Shown here piece by piece: positions 13,581 to 43,540 of a stretch of DNA of 64,000 nt. Below the pieces are notes generated by a model, which worked only from the letters and a program-made list of their open reading frames with translations, was not told the origin of the DNA and ran no database searches. Made by a program: the position numbers and the translations under genes. Source of the stretch: Alphaproteobacteria bacterium (GTDB taxonomy: Bacteria > Pseudomonadota > Alphaproteobacteria > Sphingomonadales > JAKSBY01). Each line of letters starts with the position of its first letter. The first letter of the stretch is position 1. Where the stretch lies: NCBI GenBank assembly GCA_021774625.1, contig JAJFIV010000008.1, forward strand, positions 295,045-359,044, written 5' to 3'.

Positions 13581-14330
13581 CTACGGACGGATCAGATGCA
13601 TGGTGATTGCCTTGGTCACCGCGTAAACACGGGAGCTGGCCCCTAATTTCCGGCAGGCATTCCGGATGTGAAACTTTACACCGTCTTCGGATATTCCGAG
13701 GATAACGGAAATGTCCCAGCTGGATTTGCCGCGCGCCACCCAGGTCAGAATATCCGCTTCGCGCTCCGTCAGGGCGGGGCTGGGTTCGCCTTTACTGGAA
13801 AAAAACTTATCCCACAGGACATTATGATAAAAATTACCCAGCAGAATGAGGTCGGCGGCTCCCACCTTGCGGATTTCATTCATTTCGGACGTCAGGCCGT
13901 CAAAAGAAAAAGTCAGACAGGAAAATTCACCATTCGGCCCATTGATAGGCACCGAAACGCCGCGCTCGATACCGGCATCCGAGCCTTCGCCGCATATGCG
14001 TTTCTGTTTTTTCGACAACTGGTTATAGGAGGTGGTTTCATCCCAGGAAAACGGCATGCGCCGCGTTCTTGCCTTCACCAAAACCGGGTCGCAGAAAATG
14101 TAGTTTTTTTCAACATAGCGCTGGAGCCAGTAATCCGGATAATTGGTCGCATAATAGGACCGCATATCGGGAAAAGGCGGATAAAAGGAAAGATAGCTGT
14201 ATCCGCCAAAACCCAGCGAACTGCAGAAATCGGCTAATTTACCTTCCAACGCGCTGGCAGAATCGCATGCCAGCATCTCATCGAAGGTTCCTGATGCAAT
14301 GTCCATACAGCCCACACATCCAAAGCACAT
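13581..14330 (-). CDS. luxR: AHL-binding LuxR-family transcriptional regulator
   Basis: NYP..W..RY...Y..CDPV, PFSW, GVSVP, LTERE..IL.W...GKSSWDI..IL..SE..V.FH; the start may be 14306. Confidence 0.95.
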   Translation of the reverse strand: MCFGCVGCMDIASGTFDEMLACDSASALEGKLADFCSSLGFGGYSYLSFYPPFPDMRSYYATNYPDYWLQRYVEKNYIFCDPVLVKARTRRMPFSWDETTSYNQLSKKQKRICGEGSDAGIERGVSVPINGPNGEFSCLTFSFDGLTSEMNEIRKVGAADLILLGNFYHNVLWDKFFSSKGEPSPALTEREADILTWVARGKSSWDISVILGISEDGVKFHIRNACRKLGASSRVYAVTKAITMHLIRP

Positions 14331-35638: not shown

Positions 35639-36187
35639 TTACAATTGTCCAAAAACACGTTCAATTCCTGCGGATCGATCTTGTCTCGCCATTGGCTGAT
35701 CAATTGATTCTATCCTTATGTGATCTGGAGCCGGCGTTAAATTTTCTCTCGCTTGGGTCAACTTCGCACGAACTGATCCCACGCTAGATGCCATGATTGT
35801 AGCGATATCGTCGTAAGAAAACTCCCCCATAGTCACGAGAAGCAAACAACACCGTTGATCAAAGGGAAGAGCCTGCAGCGCGGCGATTAGAGTGTCTTCA
35901 CCACTCAGAGAGTTAGCCCGCGCATCATTATCACTTCCGCCAGCCGACTCTGCCAGGGTTTTAAAACGAACCGATTTGACTCGGCGATCTTCCAAAAGCG
36001 CCTGAAGATTTGCAAATACCTCCCGGCGGTGAGAAGTTTCCTCTTCCCGCTGTTTGATTTGCGCCAATGTCCGCAAAAGTGCTTCCCTGACAAGCTCGTC
36101 AGCCTCGTTTGGTGCGCAAATAACTGAATGCGCGTACTGACGCAAATGCGGTATCGCAGTAATCAAAGCATTCTTATAAGCTGACAC
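35639..36187 (-). CDS. Degenerate ECF sigma factor (EcfG-like or PhyR sigma-like domain)
   Basis: IPHLRQYA.S......ADELV.E.LLR region 2; LP.DQR..LLLV....FSY.DIA.I....G.VR..L..AR region 4; GTG start with SD GGAGG. Confidence 0.7.
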   Translation of the reverse strand: MSAYKNALITAIPHLRQYAHSVICAPNEADELVREALLRTLAQIKQREEETSHRREVFANLQALLEDRRVKSVRFKTLAESAGGSDNDARANSLSGEDTLIAALQALPFDQRCCLLLVTMGEFSYDDIATIMASSVGSVRAKLTQARENLTPAPDHIRIESIDQPMARQDRSAGIERVFGQL

Positions 36188-36382
36188 GATCTTTCCTCCC
36201 AATCTGCCCAGAAGTGAGCCGCCGAACCACATAAGGGAAGCACACATCAACGCCCCTCACATTAACTCAAGTGAATCGCCGCCATCACGACGATAATATC
36301 GGAGGAGACATACACCACAGGATACAAAACATATGGGATGTCCCGCCGCAAAGCGATCGACCGGATCCCCCGCCCGGCGGGA

Positions 36383-36616
36383 TCAGCGGCGACGGACGAG
36401 GATGAGCCAGCCGGCGGCGGAGACAAGGATGGTCCCGGCCATCGCCCAAGCCCCGAGTAGCCAGGAGGTGGACATGGCAAGCCCTGCGGGGACCCCGGCC
36501 GCGGCGCCGAGGAAGCCGGCCAGAAAACCGAAAAGGGCGATTTCCCAAGGCGTCAGGCGTGCGATGAGCGCCACATCATCGTCGTTCGCGCGTTCGACAC
36601 AGTCGTCTCGTATCAT
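36383..36616 (-). CDS. Small two-TM membrane protein
   Basis: Two hydrophobic segments followed by an RRR terminus. Confidence 0.45.
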   Translation of the reverse strand: MIRDDCVERANDDDVALIARLTPWEIALFGFLAGFLGAAAGVPAGLAMSTSWLLGAWAMAGTILVSAAGWLILVRRR

Positions 36617-36809
36617 ATAAAATTCCTGAGATATGTCCTCATCGGGACGGCATTTCAGACCATCCGCACTGGTCTTCCTGATTTGCATAAACAGCGTCGA
36701 AGCCTCCTGTATTCCGGTAGAAGGCGGAGCCGCCGGATCGGGAGATCCGTCAATCCGCCCCTGAAAATTCTCTTTGAAATAAATTAAAAATATCGAATAT
36801 CAGTATAAA

Positions 36810-36998
36810 TTAATTGACATGCATATTCCCTATAGAATCTAAAAGACCAAATGTCCGAAGAAGCCACAATATAACTGCAATAACAACAACGATATTCAGG
36901 ATATTCTTTATCTTTCGGTCCATGGGAATGTATGTATTGATTACCCATAGCAGAACGCCAACGACAATTAATACAATCACTATATTGAGCAATGACAT
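36810..36998 (-). CDS. Small membrane protein (Thivi_2564-like)
   Basis: LIVVGVLLWVINTYIPMD.KIK.ILN.VVVI.V.LWLL..FG. Confidence 0.8.
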   Translation of the reverse strand: MSLLNIVIVLIVVGVLLWVINTYIPMDRKIKNILNIVVVIAVILWLLRTFGLLDSIGNMHVN

Positions 36999-37070
36999 TG
37001 ACCGCTGTCCCGTTCATTCCATGTATTAATAAAAAACGAGATTACCGTCCCGGGGCCGGCGGCAAAAGGT

Positions 37071-37092
37071 TCGGAATCTACGCAAGGCGTTG
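37071..37092 (-). promoter_or_regulatory. Shared 22-bp putative activator site, copy 1
   Basis: TCGGAATCTACGCAAGGCGTTG (+ strand), 18/22 identical to 43138-43159; 26 bp upstream of a -10-like TAATCT. Confidence 0.6.
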
Positions 37093-37222
37093 TCGAAAGA
37101 AAGAGCCTTAGATTTCAATACATTGAATGTCCCCCGGGGGACGGAACCGGGAATGACGCGGGTATTGGAGCATCCTCTGGGATCGCCGAGCCTTGGTATG
37201 AGTCGCGGCCGAACGCTCAGAT

Positions 37223-40200
37223 TTACGCGGCGGTATCGCCGCCGGCGGCGACCACCAGCCGGGCGAGAGCGGGAAGGGATTTCACGCCGGTCCTGCTGTA
37301 GATGGCCGCGCGGTGCTTCTCGACCGTACGCTGGCTTAAGCCGAGATCGGCCGCGATATTCTTGCTCGGATGGCCGGTGAGCACCATCCCCATGATTTCG
37401 CGCTGTCGCGGCGTAAGCCCGGCGAGGCGATTTGCGGCGCCGTCCCGCCAAGCCGAGTCCTTGGCGGCATCCGCAGACCGCGCGAGCGCCTGTCTGACAT
37501 GGTCGATCAGATCCGCAGCACTGACCGGCTTCTCGATAAAATCGGAAGCCCCGGCCTGTATCGCCCGCATGGCCATCGCGACGTCGCCAGTGCCGGTGAT
37601 CAGGATTTTGGCCAGCCGGCGGTCAACATCCCCGATCCGCTCCAGCAGGGCGAGCCCACCCATTCCGGGCATGCCGACATCGGCTAGCAGGCACGCCACG
37701 CGGCCCGGACGCCAGGAGTCGAGAAAGGATTCCGCGGTGGAGAAAGCTTCAACAGCCAGACCGTCCTCCTCGAGCACATGGCGCAGTTCCTCCAGAACGT
37801 GCAGGTCATCGTCGATGACATAGACGACAGACGTTACCGCAGCCCCATCCGCCGCACCGTCGCTGCTCCGACCGCGCGCGTCCGTCGCCGATGAGGGCGG
37901 CGGCAAAAGTTGACGGATCGCCTCGCTCAGGTCCGCCTGCTGCACGGGCTTGCTGAGATGAACACAGCCCTGTTGCGCGATGTCGCGCAGAGTGCCGGTC
38001 GAGATGTCGCCGGTCAAAATGATGGCCGGCAGCGTCAGGTGGAACCGGTCCTGCATCTTTTCGATGAGCAGGAGACCGTTCATATCGTTCGGCAGATTGA
38101 AATCGGCGATGATGAGGTCCGGACGGACCGCCATCCCGGGGATCATGTCCAGCGCGCTGGGACCATCGGCTGCCGTGACAACATAATGGCCTTCGTCCTT
38201 CAGGGCGAGCCTGAGCGTCCCGCGGACCTCGGGATCGTCCTCAACCACCAGAACCACGCCGGTGGCGTGCGGGGCCGCGCCCTGCGGCTCACCCGATGCG
38301 CTCTCCGGGTCCGACGATGCCCACGCTTTCACGCCTGCCGTGCCTTGCGCCGCCTGCCCGGCAGCATGAGGCGCAAGCGGGACCTCGATGATGAAGGCCG
38401 AGCCCTTGCCGACTTCCGAGCGGGCATGCACCCGATGGCCGAGCAGGTCCGAGAGACGTTGCACGATGGAAAGTCCGAGGCCGAGGCCGCGGCTCGATTC
38501 CCGGGCCGCATTGTCGAGTTGATGATATTCCTCGAAAATTCTCTCCAGCGACTCCCCGGGGATGCCGACGCCGGTGTCCCGGATCTCGATACTAACCATG
38601 CCCTTCCGTCTCCGGCACCCTATCAGGATCTTGCCGTGACGCGTGTATTTGAGGGCGTTAGAAACCAGATTCCGGATCATTTGCTCAAGCAGGTGGGGAT
38701 CACTATGGATCCAGCAGCCGCAGCGGACGAGGCGCAAGTCGAGGCCCTTCGCCCTTGCAAAATATGCGAATTCGTCCTTCAGCCGGCCGAGCGCCTCGTC
38801 AACCGGGAAATCGACCCGGTCCGCGATCACGATGCCGGCCTCGATCTGGTTGAGGTCAAGAAGCGCGTTCAACATGCTCGCCATGGCGGTCGAGGTTTCG
38901 CCAAATCGCCTGACAAGGTCGCGGGCTTTCTCCCCCTCGACCGTTTTGGCCAGAATCCCCTGAATCAGCGTAAGCGTCTGAAGCGGCTGACGCAGGTCAT
39001 GGCTGGCGGCGGCGAGAAAACGCGATTTCGCGAGATTGGACCGCTCGGCCTCACGTTTGGCCGCCTCAAGGGCTTCTGATATTTGCCGTCGTTCGGTGAT
39101 ATCGGTATAGGTGATGACAACGCCACCGTCTTCATTGTCGTCGGTGCGGTAGGGCAGAACGCGGCGGACGTACCAGGCTCCGTTGCGCTTCGCGATTTCG
39201 TGCTCGAGCGTCACCCGGGTCCGCAACACGCGCCGGGCGTCGTCCAGAAGGGCGCTGTCGTCGGCCAGCGCCTGAAGATCGGCGAGCGGCCGCCCGATGT
39301 CGCTCGAAATGACGCTGAAGAGGGATTTTGTTGCCGGCGTGAAAAAGCGGATATTGAGGCCGGCGTCGAGGAAGAGCGTCGCGACATTGGTGCTGTAGAG
39401 AACGTTTTGCAGATCACTGGAGACCGTTTTCTCGCGTTCCAGCGTTTCATGAAGCTGGCTGTTGAGCGCGGTCAGTTCTTCATTGAGCGACTGCAATTCC
39501 TCCTTCGAGGTTTCCAGCTCCTCGTTCGTCGCCTGGAATTCCTCGTTGATGGACAAGGCCTCTTCGTTGATCTCCCTTTGCTCCTGCGTCATGTCCTCGA
39601 GATTGCGCACGGCATCCGAAAGCTCGGTTCTGGTGGCTTCGAGCTCCCGCTCGAGCTCTGCGACCTTCGATGCCTCTTCCGGCGCTACGGGGCGATCCTG
39701 CGGGGGTTCCTGATCGGGCCTTTCGACAAAGCAGACCAACAGCAGCGAGTCGTCTTCGAACACAACCGGTCTTATGTCGATGTCGAATACCTGGCCGTCG
39801 CGGTTACGGCCGATTGAACCCGAGGCAAGGAGGATGCGTTCCTCCTTTTGCATGGCCTGCCGCACTGCCGCCCGGAGTCGGGTGCGCACGCCATCGCGGG
39901 CCATGGCGAAAATGTCGTGTTTCGGCGGTCCGGGAACGACGCGAAGATAGCGGTCCGTCGGCCCGAGCGTGTAAAGGCACTCATAGTGCCGATTGATCAG
40001 GGCCGCCGCGGGGGCATGGTTCTCGACCACCAGGCGCTGGCACAGGGCGGCAAGAGCGCCCTGACGCGAGGCCGGCCTGAGCTTGTACTGCCCGGGGACA
40101 TGTATGCTCTCGCCGCCGCCGATCGCAAAACCGAGGTCGCCGGGCCGGGTTCTGGCGGCGTGGCGGTAGACCCGCTCGGGCTTGGACATCATCTCGAAGC

Positions 40201-41635
40201 GATCATCGTCAGAACCGACCGATTCCGATCCGCCGAGAAGAAGGAAGCCGCCCTCGCGCAGCGCGAAATGAAAGAGCGCGAAAATCTTTTCCTGGGCTTC
40301 CGGCCGCAGGTAGATGAGAAGGTTCCGGCAGGAAATCAGGTCGAGCCGCGAAAACGGCGGATCGGAAAGCACGTCCTGAACCGTGAAGACGACCGTGGCG
40401 CGGATTTCCTGCAAAATCCGGTAGCCATGATCCTCCTTGGTGAAGTAGCGGGCAAGCCGTTCCGGCGTGACATCCGCCGCGATCGAGTCCGGATAGAGGC
40501 CTTCACGCGCGATGGCGATGGCGTCCGGGTCGATATCGGAAGCGAAAATCTGCAGCCTTGCCGACTGCCTTGCCGCAGCGACCTGCTCGTGGAGGAGGAT
40601 CGCCAGCGAATAGGCCTCCTCGCCGGAACTGCAGCCGACGCTCCAGATGCGCAGGGGGTTGTCGCGCGAATGCCGGCGGACGAGGTCGGGGACGATCTTT
40701 TCGGCGAGGGAATCGAAAACTGCGGGATCGCGGAAAAAACTGGTGACGTTGATCAGCATGTCCTGGACGAGCAGGTCGATTTCCTTCGCATCGCTTTCGA
40801 GAAGATCGAGATAACGGCCGATATCACCGCGATCGATGGCCGCGAGCGCCATCCGCCGTTCGATCCGCCGCTGCAGCGTTCCGGGCTTGTAGGGTCTGAA
40901 ATCATGACCGGTTCGGGCGATCAGCAAATCAAGGATTTCTGACAGGCGATCCGGCGCGGCAGGCCGCCGGCTCTTTTTGCTGCCCGCGCCCGCCGGCGCA
41001 AGCTTGCGGAAATAATTGACCAGGGCCCCGGGAATCTTTGCCACCGGCAGCACGAGGTCGACCGCGCCGGTCATGATCGCGTTTTGCGGCATGCCGTCAA
41101 AGCCGGCTTCCTCGGGGGCCTGCGCAATGACCAGCCCGCAGTTTTCCTTCACCGCCTTCAGCCCGAGGCTGCCATCGGCTCCCGTCCCCGAGAGGATCAC
41201 GCAGGCGGCACGGTCGCCGGCATTCTCGGCCAGGGATCGTAGAAAGAAATCGAAAGGAAGGCGGGCGCCATGACGTTCCTTCGGCTTCGACAGCCGGAAG
41301 ACACCCCCGCTTATGGCGAGATAGGCGCCGGGCGGAATGATAGTGATGCTGTCGGCCTCGAGCCGCATGCCCTCGGCGGCATGCCGGACCTGCATCGGCG
41401 TATGCTTGGCGAGCAGGTCCACCATCATGCTCGGATGCGTCGGATCGAGATGCTGGATCAGGACGAAGGCCATGCCGCTGGCGGTCGGCAAGGCCTTGAC
41501 GAGCTTGCTGAACGCCTCCAGACCGCCGGCCGACGCGCCGATGCCCACCACAGGCAGGCTGTCAGGCCGATCCGGAATCCTGCTGGCCGATGGCGCACGT
41601 GCGCGCGATCCGACCGTGCGCGAACCTTTGACCAT
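37223..41635 (-). CDS. CheB-CheR-coiled coil-PAS-histidine kinase-REC-REC-LuxR HTH hybrid
   Basis: CheB GASAGG/QH/GTGADG; CheR NVTSFFRD, GCSSGEEAYS; H-box SHDLRQP; DTGVG and GLGLGL; two receivers; LTPRQREI...TVEKHR; start set at MVKGS. Confidence 0.92.
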   Translation of the reverse strand: MVKGSRTVGSRARAPSASRIPDRPDSLPVVGIGASAGGLEAFSKLVKALPTASGMAFVLIQHLDPTHPSMMVDLLAKHTPMQVRHAAEGMRLEADSITIIPPGAYLAISGGVFRLSKPKERHGARLPFDFFLRSLAENAGDRAACVILSGTGADGSLGLKAVKENCGLVIAQAPEEAGFDGMPQNAIMTGAVDLVLPVAKIPGALVNYFRKLAPAGAGSKKSRRPAAPDRLSEILDLLIARTGHDFRPYKPGTLQRRIERRMALAAIDRGDIGRYLDLLESDAKEIDLLVQDMLINVTSFFRDPAVFDSLAEKIVPDLVRRHSRDNPLRIWSVGCSSGEEAYSLAILLHEQVAAARQSARLQIFASDIDPDAIAIAREGLYPDSIAADVTPERLARYFTKEDHGYRILQEIRATVVFTVQDVLSDPPFSRLDLISCRNLLIYLRPEAQEKIFALFHFALREGGFLLLGGSESVGSDDDRFEMMSKPERVYRHAARTRPGDLGFAIGGGESIHVPGQYKLRPASRQGALAALCQRLVVENHAPAAALINRHYECLYTLGPTDRYLRVVPGPPKHDIFAMARDGVRTRLRAAVRQAMQKEERILLASGSIGRNRDGQVFDIDIRPVVFEDDSLLLVCFVERPDQEPPQDRPVAPEEASKVAELERELEATRTELSDAVRNLEDMTQEQREINEEALSINEEFQATNEELETSKEELQSLNEELTALNSQLHETLEREKTVSSDLQNVLYSTNVATLFLDAGLNIRFFTPATKSLFSVISSDIGRPLADLQALADDSALLDDARRVLRTRVTLEHEIAKRNGAWYVRRVLPYRTDDNEDGGVVITYTDITERRQISEALEAAKREAERSNLAKSRFLAAASHDLRQPLQTLTLIQGILAKTVEGEKARDLVRRFGETSTAMASMLNALLDLNQIEAGIVIADRVDFPVDEALGRLKDEFAYFARAKGLDLRLVRCGCWIHSDPHLLEQMIRNLVSNALKYTRHGKILIGCRRRKGMVSIEIRDTGVGIPGESLERIFEEYHQLDNAARESSRGLGLGLSIVQRLSDLLGHRVHARSEVGKGSAFIIEVPLAPHAAGQAAQGTAGVKAWASSDPESASGEPQGAAPHATGVVLVVEDDPEVRGTLRLALKDEGHYVVTAADGPSALDMIPGMAVRPDLIIADFNLPNDMNGLLLIEKMQDRFHLTLPAIILTGDISTGTLRDIAQQGCVHLSKPVQQADLSEAIRQLLPPPSSATDARGRSSDGAADGAAVTSVVYVIDDDLHVLEELRHVLEEDGLAVEAFSTAESFLDSWRPGRVACLLADVGMPGMGGLALLERIGDVDRRLAKILITGTGDVAMAMRAIQAGASDFIEKPVSAADLIDHVRQALARSADAAKDSAWRDGAANRLAGLTPRQREIMGMVLTGHPSKNIAADLGLSQRTVEKHRAAIYSRTGVKSLPALARLVVAAGGDTAA

Positions 41636-41689
41636 GTTGCTCTTTTTCCCTCGCACATCCGGTGAACTTGCGGGCCGCAAGTGTAGCAC

Positions 41690-41711
41690 AATTTTGGATT
41701 GATCCAAAATT
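41690..41711. promoter_or_regulatory. 22-bp palindromic operator upstream of the CheBR hybrid
   Basis: AATTTTGGAT-TG-ATCCAAAATT, 4 bp upstream of a minus-strand -10-like TACACT (41685-41680). Confidence 0.55.
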
Positions 41712-41740
41712 AAAGCTGTCGTTCCTGGCAAGAAAGCCGA

Positions 41741-41771
41741 AACCCGGCAGTTCCAAGGGAACTGCCGGGTT
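41741..41771 (-). terminator. Probable terminator after the YSC84 gene
   Basis: 14-bp perfect stem AACCCGGCAGTTCC/GGAACTGCCGGGTT with an imperfect U-tract. Confidence 0.6.
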
Positions 41772-41852
41772 CAGGAGGGCGCCCCGACCAGAACACGCCC
41801 CTTGGGGGGGATGGCGTAACGCGTATTCCGACACGGATCGCGCTGCTGTTTC

Positions 41853-42422
41853 TCAGCGCTTGATCTCCGTAATCTTCGTTCCCTCAAGGCTGATTCCGAT
41901 CATCAGGCCCGATTGATCGAAGATGAAGGCATAGGCGTCGTCCTTGAGCGAACTCGTCGACAGATTCTTGGCCGCGCCTTCATCCATGAAGACCACCGTT
42001 GGCCCGACGCCGATCTCCCACCCCTCGGAATCGTGGATATAGTCGATCGCCTTGTCGTTCATCAAAAAGACCACGTAAGCATAAGATTGGCCACCGATCT
42101 GCAGTCCCCAGGATCCAGTGAAGGAATTGTAGTAGCCGTCAATGGTTCCTCCGTGCTTCAGCACGCCTTCGCCGTAAGCCGCGCCGAAAATGAGACCGGC
42201 TTTCACGATGCTCGGAAAGATGAGGACGGCCTTCGACTGCTTGGCGATCGCCGCCGCGACCGGGTTGGTCGATGTCAGCAGCTTCAGCCCCTGATCGGCA
42301 TCCTTATGCAGATCTTCCGCGGTTGCGGCCCGAGCGACGTTCGCCACGCCGACGGCGCCGATTGCCGTGAATGTGGAGACGGCGAGCAAGCTCGCGACCA
42401 TTATTTGACGAAATCTGTTCAT
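41853..42422 (-). CDS. YSC84-related (SYLF) secreted protein
   Basis: Signal peptide; VLIFPSIVKAGLIFG.AYGEG, SWGLQIGGQ, GLM.GISLEGTKI. Confidence 0.88.
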   Translation of the reverse strand: MNRFRQIMVASLLAVSTFTAIGAVGVANVARAATAEDLHKDADQGLKLLTSTNPVAAAIAKQSKAVLIFPSIVKAGLIFGAAYGEGVLKHGGTIDGYYNSFTGSWGLQIGGQSYAYVVFLMNDKAIDYIHDSEGWEIGVGPTVVFMDEGAAKNLSTSSLKDDAYAFIFDQSGLMIGISLEGTKITEIKR

Positions 42423-42531
42423 AGTGAATTCCTTGTTTTATGTGAAACTCGCCCGCGCGCCGGACCGGATCGGGCGACAGTCTCCCCGTCCGGTCAAAGC
42501 GGCCTGTTCAGGCACCATGCCGGCCCTGGGG

Positions 42532-43008
42532 CTACGTGCAGCGGAACGTGACGGATCTGCTGCCATCCGTGTTCATCGCGGTAGTGGAAGTGGTCTGTTG
42601 CGAACCGGCATTCAGGCACTGGATCTGGGCATTGCGCGACAGGTTGAGGAGTTCCTGGTCGGTCCGGTAGGTATAGGTTTGCGTGGGACTGAACTGCTGG
42701 ACCGGTTGCACCAGGAGCGTCGGCGCGACGCAATCGAAGATCACGACCTTACCGCCGTTCGGATCATTCGAAAAATTCGAGGGCTGCGGAACCAGATTGT
42801 AGCCGTTGCAGTACAACACCGCACGCTGATTGGCCTGAACCAGTTCGTCGTCATTGCGATATTCGTATGTCACGCTCGGCGCGCTCGTGGCGATCTCCTC
42901 CGGCGAGGAGTTGCGGCTTGACGAGACACAGGAGACCGTTGTCAGGGCGACGAGTGCCGTCGCCGACACCGCGATCCCCGAACGGATGAGTGCTTTGGTG
43001 GTAATCAT
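42532..43008 (-). CDS. Hypothetical lipoprotein with two internal repeats
   Basis: Lipobox-like TVSC; TYEYRNDDEL...C...DC and TYTYRTDQEL...C...RC. Confidence 0.75.
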   Translation of the reverse strand: MITTKALIRSGIAVSATALVALTTVSCVSSSRNSSPEEIATSAPSVTYEYRNDDELVQANQRAVLYCNGYNLVPQPSNFSNDPNGGKVVIFDCVAPTLLVQPVQQFSPTQTYTYRTDQELLNLSRNAQIQCLNAGSQQTTSTTAMNTDGSRSVTFRCT

Positions 43009-43137
43009 TGTTTTGCCTGTCTCTGATCGTTTCCCTGTGCATCATGCACAGGCGCGAAACCCGCGGATGAGGCAGCATGCCCCGGCGCGAATCTCACCCG
43101 CGCGGATTCTACGTGCAAAGCTGCAACACCGGCAGAC

Positions 43138-43159
43138 TCGGAAACTACGCATCGCGTCG
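43138..43159 (-). promoter_or_regulatory. Shared 22-bp putative activator site, copy 2
   Basis: TCGGAAACTACGCATCGCGTCG (+ strand); 26 bp upstream of a -10-like TAGAAT. Confidence 0.6.
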
Positions 43160-43277
43160 ACCGAGAGCGGTCGAGAGCGAGGTGGAAGACATTAAGCGCC
43201 GTCCCGCCCTTGAGGACGAGCCGCGCCGGGAGGACCGGATCGCGGGCGATCTCCTGCAGCAAGTCCAAGAGCCGCGC
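43156..43277 (-). pseudogene. AbiEii-type nucleotidyltransferase toxin fragment
   Basis: [28 protein letters not shown]...R(fs)SVD; truncated on both sides. Confidence 0.65.
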
Positions 43278-43400
43278 CGCCGCGATCCTGCACGCCTGCG
43301 GAATGCACGCCGGCCGTGAGGATTATGCCGAGACTACCGACGACGATATGGCGTTTGCGGCCTTTCACATTTTTCCCTGCATCAAAGCCGACATTGCCAC
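43278..43400 (-). mobile_element. IS5-family transposase fragment
   Basis: [20 protein letters not shown].....[12 protein letters not shown]; boundaries approximate. Confidence 0.75.
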
Positions 43401-43540
43401 GCGCATCGGGCCGGTTTGTTCCGGATAAGTTCACGAAACTTGCCGCGGTTACATGTCCGGAAACCCCAGTAAAACCGCCAAATATGCGCTTATTTGATCC
43501 TTTCGCCTTGTAGTCCGCAGCCGTTTCTGTCTCCCGTTTC

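Follow-up and report, generated by a model that had tools for sequence, protein, structure and literature searches.

A FixJ-type promoter box that is probably read by a CheB-CheR-PAS-kinase-REC-FixJ hybrid protein in an alphaproteobacterium

A 64,000-nt stretch of a Sphingomonadales genome (assembly GCA_021774625.1, contig JAJFIV010000008.1, positions 295,045 to 359,044; the whole stretch is hereafter called the window) encodes a 1470-aa hybrid protein which joins CheB, CheR, PAS and histidine kinase domains to receivers and a FixJ-like helix-turn-helix (HTH), and on either side of its gene lies one copy of a short shared site. We conclude that the two sites are likely to be FixJ-type boxes of class-II-type promoters that would be read by the hybrid's own C-terminal module, a reading to which we give a probability of about 0.7. 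A sequence-only reading of this DNA had proposed that two similar 22-mers serve the HTH of the hybrid encoded between them, and comparative evidence supports the proposal: the motif is present at the orthologous hybrid loci, beside the HTH-bearing hybrid in all 16 genomes found with one, the HTH is FixJ-like and the site matches a FixJ site class obtained by systematic evolution of ligands by exponential enrichment (SELEX). The elements concerned are listed here, with scores from a weight matrix built from sites of related genomes:

37039..37044, minus strand: -10-like hexamer TAATCT, 26 nt past the core of box 1; predicted transcript start about 37032
37064..37084, minus strand: putative FixJ-type box, copy 1, TGCGTAGATTCCGAACCTTTT in minus-strand reading; matrix score 28.0; covers the left 14 nt of the copy 1 22-mer
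37071-37092, plus-strand letters: copy 1 22-mer, TCGGAATCTACGCAAGGCGTTG
37223..41635, minus strand: hybrid gene, 1470 aa; Pfam CheB, CheR, PAS_10/PAS_4, HisKA, HATPase_c, REC, REC and GerE (LuxR-type) HTH
43106..43111, minus strand: -10-like hexamer TAGAAT, 26 nt past the core of box 2; predicted transcript start about 43099
43131..43151, minus strand: putative FixJ-type box, copy 2, TGCGTAGTTTCCGAGTCTGCC in minus-strand reading; matrix score 29.4
43138-43159, plus-strand letters: copy 2 22-mer, TCGGAAACTACGCATCGCGTCG

The 22-mers were originally described as 18/22 identical, as sharing an ACGC-N3-GCGT dyad and as lying exactly 26 nt from a minus-strand hexamer, and each of these statements agrees with the letters: the plus strand reads AGATTA at 37039-37044 and ATTCTA at 43106-43111, which are TAATCT and TAGAAT on the minus strand, and the gap is 26 nt in both copies. 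Taken alone, the 18/22 match offers no more than chance-level support, with 185 direct 22-mer pairs of at least 18 matches in the window versus 45 and 45 in two block shuffles; it is in the cross-genome context that the similarity proves real. Within the 2.99-Mb genome the 11-nt core TCGGAAWCTAC has exactly two copies, both of them these sites (a reversed-pattern control gives five), and a degenerate form of the full 22-mer with up to two mismatches returns the same two sites. Copy 2 has the best matrix score of the genome and copy 1 the second best; the next site scores 16.5, and the maximum of a reversed-matrix control over the whole 3-Mb genome is 21.1. With only two high-scoring sites, the idea of a two-promoter mini-regulon of small envelope proteins is supported for this genome, whose predicted regulon consists of these two promoters.

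The conserved element was defined by comparison with sites elsewhere. A first alignment of 39 sites, oriented by the downstream gene, shows that positions outside the search pattern are also kept: T at -3 (34/39), R at -2, C at +13 (35/39), T at +14 (36/39) and G, C and C at +15 to +17, with T, A and T recurring at +37, +38 and +42. Read in the direction of the gene, the element is T-R-R-GTAGWTTCCGA-N-CCTGCC, followed by TAnnnT 25-27 nt past the core. The fixed spacing to the -10 hexamer, noted at first for the two window copies, is a property of the whole family: in a later set of 80 non-redundant sites with a matrix score of at least 22, TAnnnT starts 25-27 nt past the core in 44, versus about 0.6 site per position elsewhere. 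Metagenome contigs scanned with a 19-nt box pattern gave 80 loci (388 kb) with 81 sites, and these independent sites have TAnnnT at 25-27 nt in 43 cases. If the hexamer occupies -12 to -7, the box spans about -52 to -32 and stands in place of a proper -35 element. The extent first assigned to the site is correct in part: the left half of the 22-mer is conserved, but the element runs about 10 nt further towards the -10 hexamer and does not lie at -39 to -60.

These alignments also bear on whether the similarity is due to chance, or whether the 6-kb segment arrived with a mobile element or island that left the copies behind as direct repeats. The many window pairs at 18/22 or better, the position of the two copies as direct repeats flanking the hybrid and the AbiEii and IS5 (insertion sequence) debris abutting copy 2 all fit such an origin. 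Against it, 15 other genomes and 80 metagenome loci have this box, at an unchanged distance from the -10, ahead of unrelated genes, no sequence is conserved between box and -10 or beyond, and when both intergenic regions were compared with the genome by blastn, no repeat family extended over the boxes. We regard this explanation as barely credible.

Several other identities for the sites were considered and rejected. The ACGC-N3-GCGT dyad, which sits mostly upstream of the conserved element, does not survive as a motif feature: only the two window copies have it at 4/4, and the other 78 sites are at chance level (mean 0.925, null 0.915), which removes it as a recognition element. A Lux-box-type LuxR site (a 20-bp inverted repeat near -42) was rejected on the same figures, the dyad not being conserved. 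EcfG-type promoters of extracytoplasmic function (ECF) sigma factors were likewise rejected: they have two conserved blocks, -35 and -10, with about 16-17 nt between them, whereas at that distance from the core neither strand shows any conservation and the sole conserved block downstream is TAnnnT at 25-27 nt. So were a sigma-54 promoter, on inspection of the aligned sites on either strand, and an att site, island boundary or mobile-element end, there being no extended homology around the boxes and no conservation of the flanks between sites.

The association of box and hybrid was followed from single loci to the whole class. DNA-level synteny among 41 relatives gave no orthologous locus, only a match to the YSC84 gene in one of them (G003). 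A protein-based contig scan recovered four loci with full-architecture relatives of the hybrid (47-56% identity). At none of the four did tblastn (E<=1e-2) detect, within 7 kb, the Thivi_2564-family gene, the YSC84 gene, the 158-aa lipoprotein gene, the ECF sigma factor gene or the 101-aa open reading frame (ORF) of the window, so the target genes are not conserved, whereas the box is: the 11-nt core occurs within 7 kb of the hybrid at all four loci, in 1, 4, 3 and 1 copies. The corresponding whole-genome counts are 2, 21, 4 and 10, with 3, 5, 0 and 2 for reversed-pattern controls.

The class-wide survey covered 401 genomes, in which we searched for a strict 18-nt box pattern and for protein matches to the hybrid at E<=1e-100. 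The strict pattern has 36 sites in 11 of the 401 genomes, and its reversed control has six single matches, as counted from the table. Hybrid matches occur in at least 39 genomes in this stricter first look, and 12 of the 39 have a match that extends to the C-terminal REC-HTH (in three of the 12 it is divided between two neighbouring frames). Eight of these 12 genomes contain the strict pattern. In contrast, it is absent from 26 of the 27 genomes with only the CheB, CheR, PAS and kinase part, and the exception, G232, is a 260-contig assembly with pieces of the protein. Among the 362 genomes without a strong hybrid match, two have the pattern (G248 and G377). When the fetched 13-20 kb around each hybrid was scored with the matrix, sites of at least 25 were found in 12/12, including the four missed by the strict pattern. 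The box thus accompanies the HTH-bearing form and not CheB/CheR fusion hybrid histidine kinases in general, which resemble the N-terminal part of our protein (CheB, CheR, PAS_10, coiled coil, PAS and kinase) at about 35-48% identity.

Clustering of the ORFs at the 16 loci leaves the hybrid as the only family present in all of them; the next real family, single-domain receivers, is present in six, and clusters of intermediate frequency are shadow ORFs of the hybrid gene. Nine of the 16 genomes have a box just past the hybrid stop codon on the same strand, as copy 1 does, and the gene which follows differs. Metagenome loci chosen by the box alone contain the hybrid (>=40% identity) in 10/80 cases, and in 4/17 when only loci of at least 8 kb are counted; by a rough estimate, chance would place a single 4.4-kb gene in well under one of the 80.

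Four relatives have the hybrid broken up, near residue 800-1080, into two or three frames that adjoin or overlap (L099 in G069, L102 in G441, L103 in G298 and L018 in G044), through natural splitting or assembly frameshifts; what remains at the C-terminus is a shorter protein, kinase-REC-FixJ or REC-FixJ.

Over the whole of its last 215 residues, REC and HTH, the hybrid aligns with StyR (1yio, 4e-35) and FixJ (5xso, 3e-34), the best solved relatives of this part. In this respect the module belongs with the FixJ/StyR subfamily of NarL-type regulators, though here it forms the C-terminus of a 1470-aa protein, whereas those regulators stand alone at about 205 aa. Its sequence shows the phospho-acceptor Asp and the T and K positions, and around the recognition helix the 16 hybrids hardly vary. 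A tblastn search of this genome with the module found no other protein that matches the HTH part. Only three GerE proteins exceed the Pfam cut-off in the genome: the hybrid, a 249-aa protein and a 266-aa ORF on contig C2. The N-terminus of the 249-aa LuxR-type protein (13581-14330, minus strand) reads by eye as the autoinducer-binding domain of a quorum-sensing LuxR. The solved relatives of the PAS-kinase core at E<=1e-10 are generic kinases, none named FixL. Long proteins that match the C-terminal module at E<=1e-20 number 2591, and their database names are generic ('CheB/CheR fusion protein', 'response regulator', 'histidine kinase'). A literature search, with most subscription journals outside it, found nothing on the function of the hybrid family or on the box variant.

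FixJ sites selected by SELEX, reportedly by Ferrieres and Kahn in 2002, are of two classes. As quoted in PMC4999443, these are GTAGTTTCCC and GTAMGTAG. Copy 2, GTAGTTTCCG, agrees with GTAGTTTCCC as quoted there at 9/10 positions and copy 1, GTAGATTCCG, at 8/10, and the box core GTAGWTTCC is nearly identical to it; the variants TAAGTAGTTTCC and TAAGTAATTTCC also occur among the sites. The first 12 nt of the box resemble the TAAGTAATTTCC of the Sinorhizobium meliloti fixK site, given in PMC4999443 as TAAGTAATTTCCCTTA. The likeness to the FixJ boxes of FixLJ systems (S. meliloti fixK and nifA) extends to the FixJ-like protein module and to a site upstream of, and overlapping, the -35 region of a sigma-70-type promoter. 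There are differences as well. The regulator here is fused to its kinase, and the predicted box position is about one helical turn nearer the start than is stated for fixK, the main FixJ target, whose promoter is protected at -69/-44 and -57/-31 according to PMC4999443. No fix or nif genes were found among the genes scanned downstream of the 80 sites.

A number of observations weigh against the assignment of FixJ-type boxes to the hybrid. The box is asymmetric and about 21 bp long, while FixJ sites, such as those of fixK promoters, are given in the same paper as 18-bp imperfect palindromes; its 3' half is CGA-N-CCTGCC and not the CCTTA of fixK, has no palindromic end, and at the fixK site the TAAG element is placed near -64, not -52 (PMC4999443). 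The core was set by the search patterns, so its apparent invariance is in part ascertainment. The -10 hexamer of copy 1 agrees with the consensus at only 3/6 positions and lies inside a weak terminator-like hairpin (37052-37037), such matches being no commoner than in shuffles. The third GerE protein of the genome, the ORF on contig C2, is known from its GerE match alone. G248 and G377 have boxes and no C-terminal half of a hybrid at E<=1e-30. Finally, the boxes of large genomes are mostly far from the hybrid (4/21 core copies in G042 are on the contig of the hybrid), and a canonical FixJ, if present in such genomes, could read the remote ones.

The last two of these points would be expected if the boxes were real but read by another protein, either a separate FixJ-family regulator or an unrelated co-inherited factor, with the hybrid as a neighbour or upstream kinase; so would the box that stands ahead of a separate REC-GerE regulator gene in G428. 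This is countered by the lack of another FixJ-like HTH match in the window's genome, with its three GerE proteins above cut-off, by the hybrid being the only gene common to the 16 loci and by the near-absence of the box (1/27) where the HTH is missing. Moreover, G248 and G377 are incomplete assemblies (81% and 67% complete) of the same genus as the hybrid-bearing G069: the hybrid gene may be unassembled there, or another protein may read the box. On balance another reader appears unlikely, and we favor binding by the hybrid, as its FixJ-like module would suggest.

How the bound hybrid would act on its promoters is a separate question. A poor -35 together with a -10 at fixed distance is the usual layout of activator-dependent promoters. 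From this layout and the FixJ precedent activation appears more probable than repression, but PMC13327599 describes FixJ binding to the nifH and nifA promoters and repressing nitrogenase expression in Rhodopseudomonas palustris. That precedent, and the overlap of the box with the -35 region, would suit a hybrid HTH that binds as a repressor (or acts in both ways) and blocks the -35 region until a signal releases it. Such repression is distinctly unlikely in our judgement: box-conserved bases stand in place of a good -35 with the -10 at a set distance, and the main target of FixJ is fixK, bound at the positions given above.

The genes that follow the boxes were examined for what the regulator might control. 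An ORF with a family match starts within 380 nt downstream, in the right direction, at 47 of the 80 sites. Single receivers are the most frequent (8 sites), followed by OmpA-type proteins (4 sites), and two or more sites each precede genes for BON, CBS, PRC-barrel, SPFH, phosphoketolase, DUF3309, DUF3141 and fatty-acid desaturase proteins. Further box-preceded genes encode KaiC, HSP20, a ribosome hibernation factor, LTXXQ, entericidin, MlaC, a P-type ATPase, an ECF sigma factor and two DNA-binding response regulators. As far as family matches can tell, this set looks like a stress, dormancy and envelope programme, into which the small membrane protein and lipoproteins of the window would fit. 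The earlier description of the regulon as one of small envelope proteins therefore suits this genome and is too narrow for larger ones, which have up to 21 core copies in one genome, presumably many more promoters, and stress and dormancy-type genes among those preceded. A YSC84 gene very like that of the window lies in a box-rich cluster beside the hybrid in G069.

Box-driven single-receiver genes are often divergent from the hybrid (L015 6210-6599, L099 12105-12557, L094 12902-13354, L102 3386-3742 and others). FixT of Caulobacter is a feedback receiver, and by analogy these single receivers may act as feedback elements. Back-to-back pairs of boxes occur in divergent intergenic regions (L017 2834-2886, L049 12184-12247, L106 4901-4959 and L101 281-298); the L017 pair lies between a phosphoketolase gene and an acetate kinase gene, the latter identified by eye.

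In the window, all relevant genes are on the minus strand. The features around the hybrid gene are:

35639-36250, minus strand: ECF sigma factor gene with PhyR-sigma-like matches (Pfam and NCBIfam); possible further member of the box-1 unit
36383-36688, minus strand: 101-aa ORF; possible further member of the box-1 unit
36810..36998, minus strand: gene for a Thivi_2564-family small membrane protein, 62 aa, the first gene past box 1; NCBIfam NF041949, E 8.1e-22, 77 bits versus a cut-off of 33
41740..41772, minus strand: strong terminator-like hairpin, 15 pairs and a T-rich tail, between the YSC84 gene and the hybrid gene
41853..42422, minus strand: gene for a YSC84/SYLF-domain lipoprotein, 189 aa, the second gene of the box-2 unit; Pfam Ysc84 3e-11, NCBIfam BPSL1445-like 6e-44 (below cut-off)
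42532..43008, minus strand: gene for a lipoprotein without a family, 158 aa, with two internal Cys-containing repeats, the first gene past box 2
43160..43434, minus strand: gene debris, a weak AbiEii N-terminal fragment and an IS5-type transposase fragment; Pfam AbiEii E 0.0023, DDE_Tnp_1 E 0.002 and NCBIfam IS5 E 2e-4, all below cut-offs

The lipoprotein-YSC84 pair looks like a unit of its own, because the strong terminator-like hairpin parts the YSC84 gene from the hybrid. On the other side, the scanned part of the gap (36300-36810) gave no terminator-like site, and the box-1 transcript could possibly run on into the ECF sigma gene; in G224 a box faces a unit which holds a similar ECF sigma gene. 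The Thivi_2564 region has a GC content of about 40% (36800-37099) versus 60-67% across the hybrid and 56% for the window, and this small gene may be a recent arrival that was put under the box.

None of the FixJ-type boxes found is directed at the hybrid gene itself. Just past the YSC84 terminator, 55-76 nt upstream of the hybrid ATG, lies an inverted repeat of two perfect 10-bp arms around a 2-bp centre (AATTTTGGAT-TG-ATCCAAAATT, 41690-41711), a possible operator through which another regulator would act on the promoter of the hybrid. At the far end, a caution that copy 2 overlaps the AbiEii junction was roughly right: the AbiEii match, to ORF residues 3-34 (about 43262-43167), stops a few bases short of copy 2. 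A 74-94-nt repeat at 43410-43503 adjoins the IS5 transposase fragment and has copies, 83-90% identical, on contigs C32 (two), C2 and C24; it is possibly a small mobile repeat or the end of an insertion sequence.

The proposed mechanism, with a predicted phosphoryl route and predicted binding, would proceed as follows. The kinase of the hybrid would phosphorylate the terminal receiver, upon which the HTH would bind the box, which overlaps the -35 region, and class-II-type recruitment of RNA polymerase would follow; the Thivi_2564 gene (with a transcript possibly continuing into the ECF sigma gene) and the lipoprotein-YSC84 unit would then be switched on. Adaptation may be built in through the fused methyltransferase and methylesterase. 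Between the PAS domains, the coiled coil contains Glu-rich repeats (NEEL, KEEL, NEEL; 39400-39560, residues ~690-740) which are kept in the N-terminal halves of relatives, and these repeats may be an internal substrate for the fused CheR and CheB.

Such a design departs from the canonical FixLJ-FixK cascade, in that kinase and regulator are one polypeptide where FixLJ has a separate haem-PAS FixL and a free-standing FixJ. A fixK-type target was not seen either: no CRP/FNR-type regulator is among the 108 downstream ORFs scanned, and the predicted targets in the window are the Thivi_2564 gene and the lipoprotein-YSC84 unit. The same design principle is known from the hybrid two-component systems of Bacteroides, in which sensor, kinase, receiver and DNA-binding domain form one chain that acts on nearby genes. 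Those are membrane proteins with periplasmic sugar sensors and AraC-type HTHs; the hybrid described here, unlike them, has no membrane part predicted in Pfam and combines CheB and CheR with a FixJ-type HTH.

More broadly, we put forward a tentative proposal for which the arguments on either side are nearly in balance: CheB-CheR-PAS-kinase-REC-FixJ hybrids may be a widespread, unstudied class of all-in-one regulators in Alphaproteobacteria which exert direct control over a regulon of stress, dormancy and envelope genes (single receivers, BON, CBS, PRC-barrel, SPFH, HSP20, ribosome hibernation factor, phosphoketolase, small membrane proteins and lipoproteins) through a distinct variant of the FixJ box. 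The genome studied here would then hold a minimal, two-promoter version of a system whose regulons in relatives may comprise ten to twenty or more core copies. A box variant that is sharply defined, has a fixed geometry and is tied to a large protein family yields a testable pairing of regulator, site and target. The family has members in named isolates of Rhodoblastus, Bradyrhizobium and Bosea, and experiments are therefore feasible; the pairing would also help to find out what the enigmatic CheB/CheR fusion kinases do.

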